Of a stretch of DNA of 6,430 nt, positions 1-6,430 are shown in pieces (the first letter of the stretch is position 1; every line of letters begins with the position of its first letter). Both the position numbers and the translations under genes were made by a program. A model generated the notes under the pieces. It saw nothing but the letters and a program-made list of their open reading frames with translations. It was not told the DNA's origin and made no database searches. Source of the stretch: an uncultured archaeon (GTDB lineage: Archaea > Asgardarchaeota > Lokiarchaeia > Sigyniarchaeales > Promethearchaeaceae); the NCBI GenBank assembly GCA_964426185.1, contig CAYRPF010000069.1, positions 1 through 6,430 of the forward strand. The letters run 5' to 3'.

Positions 1-248
1 CCAAGACAAATTAATTTCTGATAACTTGCAGATGGTTCATTAGTCCAAGGGAGGGATTCTATCGATTTTAAATCATAGAACTGGAAATATCGCTCAAAAT
101 CCCTATAAAATGAAGGATTATTATTTAAATGAAATTTACCTATAATAATTGGTATTTCAATCAAGGGTTTATTATGTGAGAATTGATATCTTTTCCTTTT
201 ATAATAAAAGGTTCCATAATCAAAATCTATTGATTCTTGCGTTTTCAC
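1..248 (-). CDS. Hypothetical protein, N-terminal 82 codons, truncated by the window edge; translationally coupled to dprA
   Basis: Not in the ORF track. Manual translation gives GTG at 248-246, directly after an in-frame TAA, then a stop-free frame to the edge: MKTQESIDFDYGTFYYKRKRYQFSHNKPLIEIPIIIGKFHLNNNPSFYRDFERYFQFYDLKSIESLPWTNEPSASYQKLICL(G). It overlaps the dprA 3' end by 29 nt. An 82-codon open frame in such AT-rich DNA is unlikely by chance. The start codon is uncertain. Confidence 0.7.
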   Translation of the reverse strand, partial: MKTQESIDFDYGTFYYKRKRYQFSHNKPLIEIPIIIGKFHLNNNPSFYRDFERYFQFYDLKSIESLPWTNEPSASYQKLICL

Positions 249-1227
249 TTAATTCTTCAACCCGTTTACTATAATATTTAAGTAAAATTAAATTAACTTC
301 ATCCAAATTAGATAAATCATTCTTAATTTCAATTCCACCTTGTTCTTTGATCATTTTAGGAATGTATGAATTTTCATGAGACCAATCTTTTGGTTCTAAA
401 TAAAATACAGGCTTGTTTGCTTCTCTGGCAAATTTATATTGCCATTTTGTCCCAGATTTATAATTTCCCTCAATAAAGATACTACCATTTGATAAAAATG
501 CGGAAAAACGATTTCTAATTTGTAAAGTTTTTTTGGTTACTCTTTTCCAAAGAAGTCTTTGTGAGATAAAAGCACCGTTTGCAATTACTTTAGAGATAAA
601 TTTTTCATTTTCTAGGGGATAAATATTTTCAACTCCTGAAGCAATAATTCCCAAATATCTACCGCCTACTTTGGAAGCACCTATATATCCTTCAATATCA
701 ATCCCTTTTGCAAATCCATTAATTAATGTATATTTTTTCTTAGCAAAATACTCTGCTATTAATCTCGTTTTCTTAATTGCATCCTCCGTAGGATTTCGAG
801 TCCCACAAATAGAATAAGATTTCACATCTTGATTTAAAATTGTTCCTCTAATGAATACTAAATCTCTATATTTCTGATCAATATTAAAGAAAATGAAGGG
901 AATATTTCTACTATAACCAGTAATGATACGAATGGATTTTTTAGCGCACCAATTAACCATTTCTTTTATTTTAAGGTATTCTTGTGCAGAAAAATCAAAA
1001 TTTATAACATTATTTACTTTTGAATAGTCATCGAATTTAATTTGTTTACCTTTAAGAAGAAAATGTTGAATTCTCTCTTTGTTAAGATTTTTGAAAGATG
1101 AAATGGTCATTTCTGGATTTTTAAATAATTCCATCAATCCGATTTTTGAAAAATTTAAAATCCTTAATAAATAAATATAATCGATTAGATTCTGATTTTC
1201 ATTTATTGTACTAAGGGTCAAATTCAT
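220..1227 (-). CDS. dprA: DprA/Smf-family DNA-processing (ssDNA-binding, SLOG/Rossmann fold) protein
   Basis: Family motifs are present: SICGTRNPT (cf. aIVGtR), LINGFAKGIDIEG (cf. vSGlArGID), IIASGVENIYPLEN, GAFISQ, RNRFSAFLS, IFIEGNYKSGT, FAREANKPVF, MIKEQGG. ATG at 1227 is preferred over TTG at 1230 because AGGAG lies 5 nt upstream. No C-terminal winged-helix domain is evident. Confidence 0.9.
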   Translation of the reverse strand: MNLTLSTINENQNLIDYIYLLRILNFSKIGLMELFKNPEMTISSFKNLNKERIQHFLLKGKQIKFDDYSKVNNVINFDFSAQEYLKIKEMVNWCAKKSIRIITGYSRNIPFIFFNIDQKYRDLVFIRGTILNQDVKSYSICGTRNPTEDAIKKTRLIAEYFAKKKYTLINGFAKGIDIEGYIGASKVGGRYLGIIASGVENIYPLENEKFISKVIANGAFISQRLLWKRVTKKTLQIRNRFSAFLSNGSIFIEGNYKSGTKWQYKFAREANKPVFYLEPKDWSHENSYIPKMIKEQGGIEIKNDLSNLDEVNLILLKYYSKRVEELSENARINRF

Positions 1228-1408: not shown

Positions 1409-1534
1409 ATGGGTAAAATTTATCTCCGATTGGCGCAAATCCTTGGAGAGTTGGCCAGTTTAATTTTTGGAGGCACCTTTAATCTCATCGGGATCGGGGG
1501 ATTGTTTACGGATGAACCCCGTAAAATTGGATAA
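1409..1534 (+). pseudogene. Truncated paralog (41 aa) of the membrane protein at 2159..2614
   Basis: MGKIYLRLAQILGELASLIFGGTFNLIG aligns without gaps to MGKLFLRLAQIIGGLACLFFGGTFIIIG, with 20/28 identical residues by manual count and many synonymous codon differences. It stops after 41 codons, against 151 aa for the paralog. G>E and I>N changes fall in the hydrophobic helix. Confidence 0.75.
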
Positions 1535-2068
1535 ATAAGCTTCAAACCACCGATTAATTGTGGCCCAATCCCTGAAATCGTTCATTCCATTCAAATCGTA
1601 TTTTTTCGGCCCTTCTTCGGCCAGCATTTTTCTGATCAATCCACTTTTCAATTTTCCAAAGCGTGAATTAAGCCGAAGGTCGAAAACTCCTCCAAATACA
1701 GCCGTAGTTCCGGGTTTTAGGTCATATTTCGTTAGTAACGGAGTTAGGTATTTTTCCTTGGCAGTTTCTACCCCTGCCGGATCTTTTGCCGTGCCGCAAA
1801 CCAGAAAGACTCCGAAATTATTTTTAAAAAGATTCAAGACAGCCCGTTTTTTCTTGAGAAATTTACGCAGGCTGGATGGGATTTTTCCGATTTGAATTCC
1901 GCCACCTACCACCACGCCGTCAAAGGCGGTAAGATCCAATTTGAACGTGTTTTTTACATCTACAAGCGAAACATCCACGTCGGCGGCCTGAGCGTTCTCT
2001 TCCATTTTTTCTGCAATTTCTTTAGTGGCTCCGTAACGGCTGGCATAAATTATGGCAATTTTATACAT
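1460..2068 (-). CDS. Flavodoxin-domain protein, HemG-like (Flavodoxin_5; menaquinone-dependent protoporphyrinogen oxidase-like)
   Basis: It has the FMN phosphate-binding loop IIYASRYGATKEIAE, plus FDGVVVGGGIQIGK, GVFLVC, AVFGG and the C-terminal DFRDWATINRW typical of the HemG-like family. The ATG at 2068 (MYKIAIIY) is preferred over TTG at 2074. True HemG activity is not established. Confidence 0.85.
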   Translation of the reverse strand: MYKIAIIYASRYGATKEIAEKMEENAQAADVDVSLVDVKNTFKLDLTAFDGVVVGGGIQIGKIPSSLRKFLKKKRAVLNLFKNNFGVFLVCGTAKDPAGVETAKEKYLTPLLTKYDLKPGTTAVFGGVFDLRLNSRFGKLKSGLIRKMLAEEGPKKYDLNGMNDFRDWATINRWFEAYLSNFTGFIRKQSPDPDEIKGASKN

Positions 2069-2158: not shown

Positions 2159-2614
2159 ATGGGTAAATTATTTCTTCGTTTAGCTCAAATCATCGGAGGA
2201 TTGGCTTGTCTTTTCTTTGGCGGAACTTTTATTATTATTGGTTCTTCTGCACTATTCTCGGAGGATTTTGGTGTTTCAGACCCTCGAGAATTTTACATTG
2301 AATTATTACCCAATCTCATCTTAATTTTCAGTTCTATAGTTTGGTTTATATATTTCAATATTAAGAAAAAGTATGAAATTGGAGGTATCTTGCTTATGTG
2401 CTTCGGAGCGGCACTCTTTTGTTCAATTATTATCACTAAGTTAATCCGAACCCATGACTTCACGGAGAGTCTTCGGGCGGGGTCAATGGGTGGGATGATG
2501 TATGCACCCCCGTATATTCTTTCAGGGTTATTCTATCTGATTGCAGTTAAATTTCAAAAACCCTCAAATAATAATGCAAAAAATAATGATGATAATATTG
2601 TAAATAGTGATTAG
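2159..2614 (+). CDS. Hypothetical integral membrane protein, about 4 TM helices, 151 aa, Asn-rich C-terminal tail
   Basis: There are four hydrophobic segments (IIGGLACLFFGGTFIIIG; LLPNLILIFSSIVWFIYF; IGGILLMCFGAALFCSIII; MMYAPPYILSGLFYLIAV). The start at 2159 is supported because homology with the 1409 relic begins exactly at this ATG. Confidence 0.8.
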   Translation: MGKLFLRLAQIIGGLACLFFGGTFIIIGSSALFSEDFGVSDPREFYIELLPNLILIFSSIVWFIYFNIKKKYEIGGILLMCFGAALFCSIIITKLIRTHDFTESLRAGSMGGMMYAPPYILSGLFYLIAVKFQKPSNNNAKNNDDNIVNSD

Positions 2615-2706: not shown

Positions 2707-2942
2707 GTGGATAATAATCCAGTCTGAATTATTGAAATGTATCTTCTGACAATTTTTATGGTGATTGATGTTCTTTCCAAATGGACACGGGATCACTTTT
2801 ACACCAGTAGGAGGTGTATGGTTTTGGCTATTCTCTCATCCCTCTTTCCGATAATCTATTCAATAAACTCCAGCTTGGAATATTTCCGCCCACATTGGTA
2901 AGAACATTCTTCTTATAGCATATAATTCGAAATTCCCTAAGT

Positions 2943-3027
2943 AAAGGTAATCGAATTTCAAAGGTGATCGAAAGTCAAATGTGGTCGAAAGTCAAAGGAA
3001 ATTGAATGTTAAAGGTGATCTAGTGTC
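2943..3027. repeat. Degenerate 17-bp tandem repeat, 5 copies, consensus about AAAGGTGATCGAAWGTC
   Basis: Units: aaaggtaatcgaatttc / aaaggtgatcgaaagtc / aaatgtggtcgaaagtc / aaaggaaattgaatgtt / aaaggtgatctagtgtc, at an exact 17-nt period. Confidence 0.85.
3013..3019 (+). promoter_or_regulatory. Archaeal-type Shine-Dalgarno (AGGTGAT) of the transporter
   Basis: AGGTGAtctaGTG precedes an in-frame GTG at 3023, just before the first TM helix. Confidence 0.5.
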
Positions 3028-4678
3028 AAATGAAATAATATTACAAATAATCATTGGGCTTTGCTTCATTGGAATTATCGTAGTATTATTTTGGGAATCT
3101 CAAGACTATCTTACCTATTCCCTTCTATTTGTTTTTTTGATTGTCATTTCAACGTTAGTTTTAAGAGGTATGGGCCCAAATGAGCTGAAAGGAATTATTC
3201 TGGCAGTAGATTGGAATGTAATTGTATTTCTTATTTGTTTATTTTCGATTATTGAAATTTTGAATTCAAAGCAGATATTTCAGCAAATTGCAATTCGTAT
3301 TGTAAATAAGTTTGCTCTTCATCCCCGGCGGTTGTTTTATGCTATTTGTATTATATCAACGATGATTGCCACAATTATTGAAGATTTAAGCGTGGCTATT
3401 ATCTTCATTCCAATCGTGATTCAAGCATGCCGAGGTATTCATATAAGCCCTCTTCCTTACATGTTCGGGATCACGATCTGTATAAACTTGGCCAGTACTT
3501 TGACTCCATTTGGATCTGCCGAAAATATTATTATTGCCAATCACTTCAATCTTTCATTACATTGGCATTTAGTCAATTTGGGGATTTATTTCATTGTTGT
3601 ATTGTTCATTACTCTTTTTTTGGTTGATCGCTTGTTATTGACTCGTTATTTGAAACGGTATTATTATGAAATTTATGAAGCGATTCCGGGCTATTTTGAC
3701 CCTAATCAAATAGATCCCTTGAATAATGAAGAAAATTCTAAAAATATGAAGGGAAATAAAAGATCTAATCAACTAGATACAATTAATTATGAAGAGAATA
3801 ATAAAAATAAGAGAAGACATAAAGAACATCACCTGAGTGAAGAGTTTTTGAAAAATGCTCGGTTAAAAGAAATAAAAGATAGGGTATTTCAATCTTTGGA
3901 ACAAGCGAATTTGAATACTTCTGGTGAGGACAGAAATAAGGCAGTGATTACTGTTAGTTTAAGCGAGATTCAATTACATAATTTGCTCAAACATAGAAAT
4001 AATGACGTTAAGATAAATGTTCTAAACCTTAAAGCGGATAAAAAAGATTTTCACCGTAATATGATAGGTTTAGGGCTTTTAATAATAATATTTGTAACCG
4101 TTTCTCAAATTATAATTGCAGGAATTTTAGGATTATTACTGTTTACCTTTCTTAATCCTATAAAGGTTACAGGAAAAAAACGCATTCCTTCTGTTTCTTA
4201 TTATTTTAAGAAAATTGACGCTAAATTAATTTATTTCTTTGCAATTTTATTTATAACTGTATATTTTATGGACTTGGCAGGGATAACATATTGGATTGAT
4301 GAGTTGGTTGAAAATTGGGGGCACCATGATGTCTTTCTCATCTCAGTGGGAATATTATTACTAACTTCAATTTTATCTGGATTTCTCGATGATGCTCCTA
4401 TAACGATTATGTTTCTTCCTATTATTGACAACCTTTTACGCTTGTTTAATCATCCAGGTAATCCTATTTTTATCGCTTTTACCTTGGGAATCAATTTAGG
4501 TGGTAATTTTCTTCCGCAAGGGGCAGCTTGCGATATGATGACCCTAGAGCTGGCAAAGAAACACAATGTGAAGGGATTTACATACAAATCATTAACTCTG
4601 ATCGGTGGTTTATTTGCTTTAATCCATATTCTCCTCGGAATCGGTTATATTGCGTTATATCAAGCCATTTTTGGGTGA
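3023..4678 (+). CDS. ArsB/NhaD-family (ion transporter superfamily; SLC13/P-protein/CitMHS-like) permease with a large central hydrophilic loop
   Basis: It has many TM helices and the motifs VDWNVIVFL, ATIIEDLSVAIIFIPI, INLASTLTPFGSAENIII, SILSGFLDDAPITIMFLPI and INLGGNFLPQGAACDMM, matching the two-fold internal repeat of the family. The start could be 2981 (ORF track) but is more likely GTG 3023. The substrate is unknown. Confidence 0.85.
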   Translation: MSNEIILQIIIGLCFIGIIVVLFWESQDYLTYSLLFVFLIVISTLVLRGMGPNELKGIILAVDWNVIVFLICLFSIIEILNSKQIFQQIAIRIVNKFALHPRRLFYAICIISTMIATIIEDLSVAIIFIPIVIQACRGIHISPLPYMFGITICINLASTLTPFGSAENIIIANHFNLSLHWHLVNLGIYFIVVLFITLFLVDRLLLTRYLKRYYYEIYEAIPGYFDPNQIDPLNNEENSKNMKGNKRSNQLDTINYEENNKNKRRHKEHHLSEEFLKNARLKEIKDRVFQSLEQANLNTSGEDRNKAVITVSLSEIQLHNLLKHRNNDVKINVLNLKADKKDFHRNMIGLGLLIIIFVTVSQIIIAGILGLLLFTFLNPIKVTGKKRIPSVSYYFKKIDAKLIYFFAILFITVYFMDLAGITYWIDELVENWGHHDVFLISVGILLLTSILSGFLDDAPITIMFLPIIDNLLRLFNHPGNPIFIAFTLGINLGGNFLPQGAACDMMTLELAKKHNVKGFTYKSLTLIGGLFALIHILLGIGYIALYQAIFG

Positions 4679-4690
4679 TGAGATGCAATA

Positions 4691-4745
4691 GATTAGAAGT
4701 AAATGATTAGAAGTAAATGATTAGAAGTAAATGATTAGAAGTAAA
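4691..4745. repeat. Perfect 14-bp tandem repeat (GATTAGAAGTAAAT) x3.9
   Basis: Copies start at 4691, 4705, 4719 and 4733; the last lacks the final T. Confidence 0.97.
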
Positions 4746-4789
4746 GGGAGAAAAGGGAGAAAAGGGAGAAAAGGGAGAAAAGGGAGAAA
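4743..4789. repeat. Perfect 9-bp tandem repeat (AAAGGGAGA) x5.2, pure purine tract
   Basis: Copies start at 4743, 4752, 4761, 4770 and 4779. The array abuts the 14-bp array. Confidence 0.97.
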
Positions 4790-4796: not shown

Positions 4797-6131
4797 TTAT
4801 CCTAAGATCTCTGCATTTTGAATGATATTTGAGGCTTGTTGATGAAATTTTAAATTTCGTTCGATTAATGAATTGAGAGAATCTTTAAGAGTTTTTGCCT
4901 TCTGAGTTCCAAAAGTGATAGATTTTGTTTTTAACTTCGTCTGTGCTTTTTCAGATTCCATTTCTGCTTCATGCAGTGCTTGTTCTGCCTTGGTTAAATC
5001 TTCAGGTTTTCGTTTTTCTTCAGGTTTTTCTTGAATCTTTTTAAGTTTTTTCTGAGCTTTTTCCAGTTTTTCTTCAGCTCGTTTTGCTTCCTTAGTGATT
5101 TCTTGAAGAATTTTATAATCTTCGGAAAGTTTATGTAAGGGTTCAATGAATTCAAACTTCATCTGCTCGATAAAAGCTTGGCGATTCGTTTCAATGATTT
5201 CTAACGCACCTGCAAATCGATTTAACACTCCTTTAATGTCAGGAGATTCCTTTTCCGCATAACTCTTATAGACTGAGATTGCTTCCGTTGTTTCTTTCAT
5301 GAGCCGGGAGTGAGCGTCTAAAATTTGCTTGTTTTCCCGGATTACTTTAGCCAATTCTAAATCCGTTTTGGTAATTCGTTCGGTGAAGTTAATTATTTTC
5401 GATTTAAAGGGAGATTTTTCCTGTTTTTCTTCTTTATCATTTGTGTCTATTTGATTAGCATATAATTTACCTTCAGTTCCGACTTTAATTGCCAAGACTG
5501 GGGGTTTTACTTTCTCAATATTTTCTTTTGATTGATTGTGAAACTGTTTTCTTTGTTCAATCAGCACTTTAAAAGAATTTTTAATGATATTGAGTTTTTT
5601 TTGATGAAATTCTTCTTCTTTCTGTTCTAAATCGTAATTAATTTTTTCCAATTTTTCTTTTGCGTCTTTGACTTCTTGTTCTGCAAGTTCAAGTTCATTT
5701 TCCTTCATTTTTTCCGGATTTTTTTCCGCTTTTTCTTGTTTCTTTACCAAAGTTTTGTTAGCATGTTCCAAAGCTTTTTCGGCCCTTTGCTTTTCTTTTT
5801 TTAGTATTTCTACTTCTTTCCATACATCTGAAAGATATTCAAATGGTCGTAAAAATCCAAGGCGGAGTTGTTCTACCATTTTTCGCCTACTTTCCTCTAC
5901 TTTTTTCAGCGTTTCCGAAATTTGACTCAAAGCTTCTTTTGAAGCGGGCGTTTCAATTTCACTATAATCTTGTAAGGCTTGAATGCCTTCGTTGCTTTCT
6001 AAGCTGAGTTTTAACTCTGCTTCGAGCATCTGTCGATTTTCTTTGATTATAGGATTGATTGGAGAAGATCCCAGAAATGCTTGATCCGAAAGCTTTCCGA
6101 TTTTTTGTTTGACAGTTGTAAAAAACTTCAT
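4797..6131 (-). CDS. Tandem double BAR-domain-like helical protein (FAM92/CIBAR- or SNX-BAR/Vps5-like)
   Basis: The 444-aa protein is K/E-rich and all-alpha, with two homologous halves (aa about 1-208 and 240-444). A gapless alignment runs from IIKENRQMLEA...DYSEIETPASKEAL...EQLRLGFLRPF to VIRENKQILDA...SYAEKESPDIKGVL...EQMKFEFIEPL, and LIEQRKQFHNQS pairs with LIERNLKFHQQA. The pattern and length match a three-helix BAR domain. The CDS is near certain; the BAR call is by eye. Confidence 0.75.
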   Translation of the reverse strand: MKFFTTVKQKIGKLSDQAFLGSSPINPIIKENRQMLEAELKLSLESNEGIQALQDYSEIETPASKEALSQISETLKKVEESRRKMVEQLRLGFLRPFEYLSDVWKEVEILKKEKQRAEKALEHANKTLVKKQEKAEKNPEKMKENELELAEQEVKDAKEKLEKINYDLEQKEEEFHQKKLNIIKNSFKVLIEQRKQFHNQSKENIEKVKPPVLAIKVGTEGKLYANQIDTNDKEEKQEKSPFKSKIINFTERITKTDLELAKVIRENKQILDAHSRLMKETTEAISVYKSYAEKESPDIKGVLNRFAGALEIIETNRQAFIEQMKFEFIEPLHKLSEDYKILQEITKEAKRAEEKLEKAQKKLKKIQEKPEEKRKPEDLTKAEQALHEAEMESEKAQTKLKTKSITFGTQKAKTLKDSLNSLIERNLKFHQQASNIIQNAEILG

Positions 6132-6365: not shown

Positions 6366-6430
6366 AAATCAAGATAAATCAAGATAAATCAAGATAAATC
6401 AAGATAAATCAAGATAAATCAAGATAAATC
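6366..6430. repeat. Perfect 10-bp tandem repeat (AAATCAAGAT) x6.5 or more, running off the window edge
   Basis: The sequence is aaatc followed by six consecutive aagataaatc blocks to position 6430. Confidence 0.97.

Follow-up and report, generated by a model that had tools for sequence, protein, structure and literature searches.

A conserved tandem BAR-domain protein of Lokiarchaeia, candidate for a single-chain asymmetric BAR crescent

The tandem BAR gene and its surroundings

The window (the whole stretch of DNA analysed, 6,430 nucleotides) comes from a genome that is 92% complete (G000) and whose host is a Harpocratesius-like Lokiarchaeon. It carries the tandem BAR gene P0001 (4797-6131, minus strand, stop included; 444 aa), of which the reading frame runs from the ATG at 6131-6129 to the TAA at 4799-4797 with no internal stop. 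The closest homolog of the protein, 67% identical, belongs to Candidatus Harpocratesius sp., and the further homologs come from Promethearchaeota. Actin-family proteins are also encoded in the host genome. A scan for promoters of the sigma-70 type remained at chance level. In a search of sequencing runs, 76-85% of the words occur in two DNA runs from hydrothermal vents, of which one may be the sample of origin; RNA runs were absent from the results listed.

The tandem BAR gene lies tail to tail with a gene encoding a CitMHS/ArsB-type transporter with a long polar insertion (2951-4678, plus strand). The same neighbourhood is found in L032/L033, L034 and L035 (63-72% identical), i.e. it is conserved among close relatives. 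A functional link between the two genes was set aside, because the synteny is seen only among these close relatives and the genes are arranged tail to tail. Beyond the window, two CoA-transferase subunit genes are localized upstream on the same strand (G000:C69:6631-8450) and are 90-93% identical to those of L032, where two further genes, for which no match was found on C69, stand between the CoA-transferase genes and the BAR gene. At the other end of the window, a gene of the DprA/SLOG family with an N-terminal extension was recognized (220-1224, minus strand; PF02481, E 1e-33). A 41-aa ORF (1409-1534, plus strand) is a truncated paralog of the N-terminus of a 151-aa membrane protein (2159-2614, plus strand; 55% identity, E 3e-13). 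Between these two lies a flavodoxin-domain gene (1460-2065, minus strand) that overlaps the short ORF and has a GC content of about 42-44%, against about 30% around it, as if it had been inserted between the paralogs. Short intergenic tandem repeats, perfect or near-perfect, are present at 4691-4789, 6366-6430, 2626-2706 and 2939-3036. They comprise a 14-mer (3.9 copies) and a 9-mer (5.2 copies) between two convergent stops, a 10-mer (6.5 copies or more) upstream of the BAR gene and, in the other intergenic regions, a 38-mer (2 copies) and a degenerate 17-mer (5 copies).

The sequence-only reading of this gene had recognized two BAR-like domains fused in one chain, and this is borne out by the alignment of the two halves, which are 36% identical over 174 aa with an E-value of 6e-28 (BLASTP). 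Because Lys/Glu-rich helices match each other easily, shuffled and genome-wide controls were run. The Smith-Waterman score of the two halves is 287, whereas 2000 shuffles gave 63 +/- 9 (maximum 99), shuffles in blocks of 7 residues (heptads) a maximum of 120, the reversed sequence 88 and the 3400 other ORFs of the same genome a maximum of 117. Shuffles in blocks of 28 residues, in which long real segments are kept, reached a maximum of 264. The score is above all controls; therefore, the similarity between the halves is not a matter of coiled-coil composition. Pfam detects BAR_3 (E 4e-10, two stretches) and FAM92 (E 1e-7) and, over the whole of P0001, no further family at E <= 1; matches to PX and Vps5 are absent. 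The two BAR domains thus take up the entire chain, with no PX domain before the BAR domain as in the SNX-BAR and Vps5 proteins, and the earlier statement that PX, SH3 and PH domains are lacking agrees with the Pfam search.

The chain begins with a basic amphipathic helix, H0-like, at residues 1-19 (6075-6131, minus strand, as for all the following segments), with a hydrophobic moment of 0.47 and a net charge of +3. This helix of the first half (R1) is free, being separated from helix 1 by a Gly/Pro break, and is modelled with a pLDDT of 51-59, a low confidence that is as expected of a helix folding on a membrane. Its H0-like score is unspecific, many other segments of the Lys-rich P0001 scoring as high. 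The homologs also possess an amphipathic and basic N-terminus, and the putative H0 may insert into the membrane. The first BAR domain has its three-helix core, delimited by the model and the profile alignment, at residues 26-206 (5514-6056), and retains the kink Pro96 together with Glu60, Lys179 and His198. Residues 209-226 (5454-5507) align with the C-terminal tail of the single-domain relatives and are modelled as ordered helices (pLDDT 85-98); Lys209 and Ile215 in this tail are typical of R1. The linker had at first been taken as about 30 polar residues, but about 17 of these are the conserved tail of domain 1. According to the homolog alignment and the model, the loose part spans about 14 aa, approximately residues 227-240 (5412-5453), with a pLDDT of about 61 for residues 231-240. 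Among the homologs, the length and the sequence of the linker vary widely, from about 10 residues (in P0006) to several tens. The second BAR domain (R2) is defined by Pfam, the model and the profile alignment at residues 241-444 (4800-5411). Its H0-like start is modelled as running continuously into helix 1 and, in the lineage of P0001, R2 has no C-terminal tail whereas R1 keeps it. Each arm carries a Lys-rich tip: that of arm 1 (residues 130-143; 5703-5744) matches the lipid-binding region 2 of FAM92A (PMC12269497), and that of arm 2 (residues 358-375; 5007-5060) is more basic than tip 1, as judged from its charge and the profile alignment.

Family assignment and distribution in Lokiarchaeia

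The profile of the single-domain proteins matches the CIBAR1/FAM92A structures with E-values of 8e-23 and 2e-20, the next match being amphiphysin at 7e-5. Each half of P0001 taken separately also matches CIBAR1 (E 1.2e-3 and 2.3e-7), and PF06730 is found in P0001 with 32-35 bits for a cut-off of 23.6. Judged by these profiles, the family of P0001 is CIBAR/FAM92-like, matched above all other BAR proteins; the assignment is one of profile matches and not an orthology to eukaryotic CIBAR drawn from a tree of all BAR families. The comparison of the model with FAM92A by Foldseek gave a TM-score by target of 0.79 and an rmsd of 2.8. The top matches of the fold search are all BAR domains (ACAP1, SNX1-SNX5, APPL and BIN1, at Z 12-13), and no BAR chain covering both halves, whether solved or predicted, is among the matches listed. 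In the model each half consists of three helices, and the kink Pro is invariant.

With the eukaryotic classical BAR protein CIBAR1/FAM92A (PF06730; PDB 9uhd and 8ceg), P0001 shares the three helices, the kink proline, the interface residues and the distal basic tips, and both are devoid of PX, PH and SH3 domains. FAM92A has, however, one domain per chain and acts as a symmetric homodimer, whereas P0001 has two unequal domains in one chain, lacks most of the central basic patch, possesses an N-terminal amphipathic helix and comes from an archaeal host. More generally, in the classical BAR superfamily a chain holds one domain and the working unit is made of two chains, a rule that P0001 breaks with two domains in a conserved ORF. 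The eukaryotic heterodimers Vps5/Vps17, SNX1/SNX5, Rvs161/Rvs167 and APPL1/APPL2 display the same fold (Z 12.9, rmsd 1.9 and 181 aligned residues for the SNX1-SNX5 entry 8a1g) and also build an asymmetric crescent from two paralogous BAR domains. They consist, in contrast to P0001, of two separate chains, mostly with PX, PH or SH3 domains, and the likeness to Vps5/SNX is weak in sequence (E 1e-3 or worse with the single-domain profile). The comparison with Vps5/Vps17 and Rvs161/Rvs167 made in the sequence-only reading is thus retained as an analogy only, the nearest family being CIBAR/FAM92 (E 8e-23).

Using the single-domain profile, the family was detected in 59 of the 161 genomes of the class; outside Lokiarchaeia, 239 genomes gave one marginal match with the single-domain query. 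Nearly all members are single-domain, with ORFs of about 205-275 codons. The double form occurs in four genomes (G000, G054, G077 and G151) from two genera of the host's own family, and the remaining 55 matching genomes have a single domain of the same family. The other genomes of the host's family, several of which are incomplete, have a single domain or no match. No second gene of this family was found in G000 or in the single-contig genome G054 of the same genus, whereas G151, which is Lokiarchaeum ossiferum (L036 is 100% identical to UYP47554.1), has two tandem genes and one single gene. The single-domain Lokiarchaeial proteins, presumed homodimers of chains of about 205-245 aa, are of the same family as P0001 and about 25-36% identical to each of its halves; the tandem form was found only in two genera of one family. 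One protein (P0011) is a tandem interrupted by a contig end. In another tandem (P0007, 553 aa), the first domain hits the profile in two overlapping segments (1-169 and 198-319), which suggests a partial extra duplication of the arm in its R1. A protein of 467 aa (P0050; L044:613-2175, in G135) was rejected as a tandem: it has HEAT/PBS-lyase repeats ahead of one BAR domain of the present family and represents another Asgard architecture.

Is the fusion an artefact of assembly, or the read-through of two separate genes? Two adjacent separate genes do exist in a relative (L046, see below), and another relative (L048) has an in-frame TGA near the junction. The tandem is nevertheless one open frame in G000, G054 and G077 and twice in G151, of which G054 and G151 are single-contig genomes; since the frame is conserved in four genomes, two of them single-contig, we conclude that the fusion is not an assembly artefact. 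Additional fused homologs were recovered from NCBI, Logan and ENA assemblies, and the entry for the L. ossiferum protein gives 51 kDa and a peptide coverage of about 50%. We attach practically no weight to an artefact, which the sequence-only reading had named among the outcomes that would undo it.

The cultured species L. ossiferum appears in a paper on Lokiactin pull-downs, the authors of which we take to be Radler and colleagues. Its protein UYP47554.1 (NEF87_003839; P0006 in our set) is a tandem BAR protein with its halves in the R1 and R2 clades, and is named Bar2 in the pull-down table (PMC13716822; bioRxiv 10.1101/2025.11.30.690169). Bar2 has the two-domain architecture of P0001, to which it is 36% identical, but its linker is shorter and it keeps the C-terminal tail of R2. 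In the tables of that source, Bar2 (51 kDa) is present in 16 of the 16 proteome columns with a mean of 18.5 (21.7 for Lokiactin); in the pull-down it is represented by 23 peptides (49.7% coverage) with a log2 ratio of 1.66 (about 3-fold), p 0.026 and adjusted p 0.075. The two BAR-domain proteins of the L. ossiferum pull-down are given there as not significant, and an Arf GTPase came down with Lokiactin along with Bar2 (PMC13716822). The second of them, Bar1, has the size of a single-domain protein (24.7 kDa; PMC13716822) and probably belongs to the single-domain Lokiarchaeial BAR proteins. In the accessible parts of the source, Bar2 is called only a BAR-domain protein and its double domain is unremarked. 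Since Bar2 was detected, a tandem of the P0001 family is produced as protein by a cultured Asgard archaeon; its link to actin is only a hint.

Origin of the two halves

Maximum-likelihood trees of single domains showed that all R1 form one clade and all R2 a separate clade. Three proteins near R2 in the first tree (P0013, P0020 and P0038) are encoded by stand-alone genes for which no BAR neighbour was seen on the contigs. The contig L046 (ENA ERZ21869602) contains two adjacent unfused single-domain genes, A (4001-4666) and B (from 4710), in the order kept in the tandem, with a kinase neighbour 65% identical to one in G000. In the tree, gene A branches as the sister of all R1 (96/85) and gene B as that of all R2 (98/88). 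After a spacer of 43 nt, gene B has its own Met-Gly-Phe start and an amphipathic helix and, across two frameshifts that are probably long-read errors, it contains the helix-3 signature of R2 and a full C-terminal tail. The reading frame of A is closed by a stop codon and that of B is blocked by stops immediately ahead of its start, so that a single indel cannot join them. In L048, a frame of the fused type still shows, where R2 begins, a relic internal Met-Gly-Phe-Leu, and downstream of this motif an in-frame TGA (746-817), for which a pseudogene, a read error or a recoding are candidates.

The sequence-only reading had described an old internal duplication. Its age is upheld, since the third codon positions of the two halves agree at only 38%; its internal nature is not, as the tree and the L046 pair favour the fusion of a gene pair. 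The simplest history suggested by these sequences is a gene duplication, a divergence into an A/B pair and then a fusion. In the other history, one gene was duplicated internally, and the two genes of L046 were split apart later or go back to a tandem duplication of their own. Placing all fused halves in one clade costs 17 log-likelihood units but is not rejected (p-AU 0.054), genes A and B share 42-44% identity, and L046, one long-read contig, holds the single unfused pair that the searches recovered. However, A and B take basal positions in the R1 and R2 clades, at nodes with starred support, B already carries the R2 helix-3 signature, and its intact N-terminus of ancestral type and its C-terminal tail are not restorable by a split. 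An internal duplication is thus the less probable of the two histories, with a chance that is small without being negligible.

A single-domain CIBAR/FAM92-like gene of Lokiarchaeia would then have been duplicated in tandem, the copies would have become an A/B pair whose members differ in their helix-3 interfaces, and these would have been fused in an ancestor of Harpocratesius and Lokiarchaeum. Since the tandem is confined to one Lokiarchaeal family, which is not the lineage nearest to eukaryotes, it represents a parallel invention and not the ancestor of the eukaryotic heterodimers; heterodimerisation arose independently in the two.

Predicted pairing of the halves and candidate function

The sequence-only reading had raised the possibility that the two halves fold within one chain as a pseudo-heterodimer. 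The AlphaFold2 model of the single chain of P0001, obtained with an alignment of 54 rows, is consistent with one rigid unit: the pLDDT is 93 and the pTM 0.86 over 444 aa, values given by a program whose training set includes solved BAR dimers. The ESM Atlas model has a pTM of 0.76, and P0006 modelled by AlphaFold2 without an alignment gave a poor model (pTM 0.28). Two equal halves without a fixed relative position would be expected to cap the pTM near 0.5, so the value of 0.86 suggests that the relative position of the halves is confidently predicted. Because one chain was given to AlphaFold2, the model applies equally to intra-chain and to swapped pairing. A single-chain helical bundle of 189 aa (8gl3) aligns 188 of its residues across positions 27-442 of the model (Z 10.3, rmsd 3.8), and the BAR core therefore appears to draw on both halves, as far as the common arrangement is concerned.

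The residues of the FAM92A dimer (PMC12269497) were mapped onto both halves through the profile alignment. The positions of the dimer interface are hydrophobic for 64% in R1 and 71% in R2, compared with 30-31% at other positions. For FAM92A, the contacts N91-T130', E131-K245' and S254-Q279' are listed (PMC12269497), and the inter-chain Glu-Lys pair E131-K245 and His264 are invariant in both halves. The residues of the antiparallel packing of helix 1 and helix 3 are thus kept in both halves of a chain modelled alone with a pTM of 0.86. The listed contacts bring the end of helix 3 in one FAM92A chain close to where helix 1 of its partner begins, and a short linker could consequently close the crescent within one chain.

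The two halves are not equivalent. The identity in helix 3 is 0.69 for R2, 0.42 for R1 and 0.26 for the single-domain proteins, and the R2-specific interface stretch from Glu424-Arg425-Asn426 to Glu441 (4809-4862) is invariant in 10 of 10 R2 halves. The profile positions 189 and 206 are predicted to lie opposite one another between the two helices 3, in a register borrowed from a protein of 20% identity. At these positions the commonest pair of the single-domain proteins is Asp/Glu-Lys (17 of 54), which forms a symmetric pair in many of the presumed homodimers, whereas R2 has Glu/Glu in 10 of 10 sequences and R1 has any residue followed by Lys in 8 of 9, all these sequences being related. This pattern is what a split homodimer interface with two complementary halves would look like, and may weakly suggest one; in P0001 itself, position 189 of R1 is Glu, against the pattern. 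A rough sum of charges is lowest, or tied, for the R1-R2 pairing in 8 of the 9 tandems.

From these data we consider P0001 as probably a single-chain asymmetric BAR crescent, i.e. a fused heterodimer that closes within the chain and binds curved membrane. The domains 1 and 2 would pack antiparallel to give the six-helix core of a classical BAR crescent, and R1 and R2 are accordingly inferred to be packed within one chain in vivo. The flexible linker, about 10 residues in P0006 and several tens in others, and a swapped arrangement that uses the same R1-R2 interface are also what would be expected if the protein were open and R1 paired with the R2 of the next molecule (or R1 with R1 and R2 with R2) in membrane-bound filaments or a membrane-bound lattice, with the closed monomer as a storage state at most. 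Assemblies of which the protein identity is not given are visible at highly curved membrane in tomograms of L. ossiferum (PMC9834061). Against such chains stands the large size of the interface (about 2700 square angstrom in FAM92A; PMC12269497). By general principle, tethering favours closure within the chain. Moreover, the charges oppose R2-R2 and, in most tandems, R1-R1 pairing, and the high pTM of the single-chain model indicates that the linker reaches. We therefore regard the formation of open chains as unlikely.

Concerning the membrane, the central basic patch R108, K109, R112, R114 and K116 accounts for about 90% of the liposome binding of FAM92A (PMC12269497). The equivalent residues are E37, A38, K41, S43 and E45 in R1 and D272, A273, R276, M278 and E280 in R2, so that only the R112 position (mouse FAM92A numbering) is basic in either half; the patch is mostly acidic or neutral in the single-domain relatives too. 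Both halves retain the distal Lys clusters (region 2 of FAM92A) and a large part of region 4. The overall charge of each half is close to neutral, which makes a strong electrostatic scaffolding doubtful. Any membrane binding would have to depend on the tips and the N-terminal helix; alternatively, the protein may serve more as a protein scaffold. As an arfaptin-like scaffold, it would bind an Arf-like GTPase, actin or an actin regulator rather than bend the membrane, and the invariant helix-3 face of R2 would be the docking site. The missing central patch, the far stronger conservation of helix 3 in R2 than in R1 (0.69 against 0.42), the presence of both Bar2 and the Arf GTPase in the tables of the Lokiactin pull-down, and the fact that the BAR domain of FAM92A itself binds a partner, CBY1, speak for this role. 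On the other side, the distal Lys clusters and Lys183/Lys194 are kept in most halves, the N-terminal amphipathic helix is also kept, much of the R2 signature falls at interface positions, and membrane and partner roles can coexist. We consider a scaffold of this kind quite improbable as the main role, somewhat more so than the open chains. In the crescent closed within its chain, one molecule would be a complete asymmetric scaffold independent of concentration. It would bear a single free amphipathic helix at its N-terminus and a pair of unequal basic tips, and would sense or stabilise curved membrane, for instance where the actin-filled protrusions of these cells have their necks and branch points.

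Fused pseudo-dimers are a common theme in other folds. For BAR proteins, the sequence-only reading knew of no well-characterised example of such an architecture, and our search of the literature on tandem or single-chain BAR proteins and on FAM92 in archaea, with most subscription papers outside its scope, likewise returned no description and nothing relevant. BAR domains of Asgard archaea are already known as eukaryotic signature proteins (PMC10307638); what is new here is the architecture within a known family, conserved and expressed. A bolder interpretation, which we put forward only tentatively, is that P0001 represents the first natural single-chain BAR heterodimer, in a series from homodimer to adjacent A+B pair to fusion, and that it is a polarised scaffold coupling curved membrane to Lokiactin in protrusions, or forms head-to-tail chains.

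How the branched protrusions of Asgard archaea are shaped is an open question in the origin of the eukaryotic cell, and no biochemical study of Asgard BAR proteins was found in the literature searched. The tandem family provides a small, soluble and testable candidate; a cultured species expresses it, and the Lokiactin pull-down contains it. The single, paired and fused forms allow a direct test of the passage from a BAR homodimer to an obligate heterodimer, the step behind Vps5/Vps17 and Rvs161/167. If P0001 is truly a natural single-chain crescent, one arm could be altered at a time, unlike in the homodimeric BAR domains.
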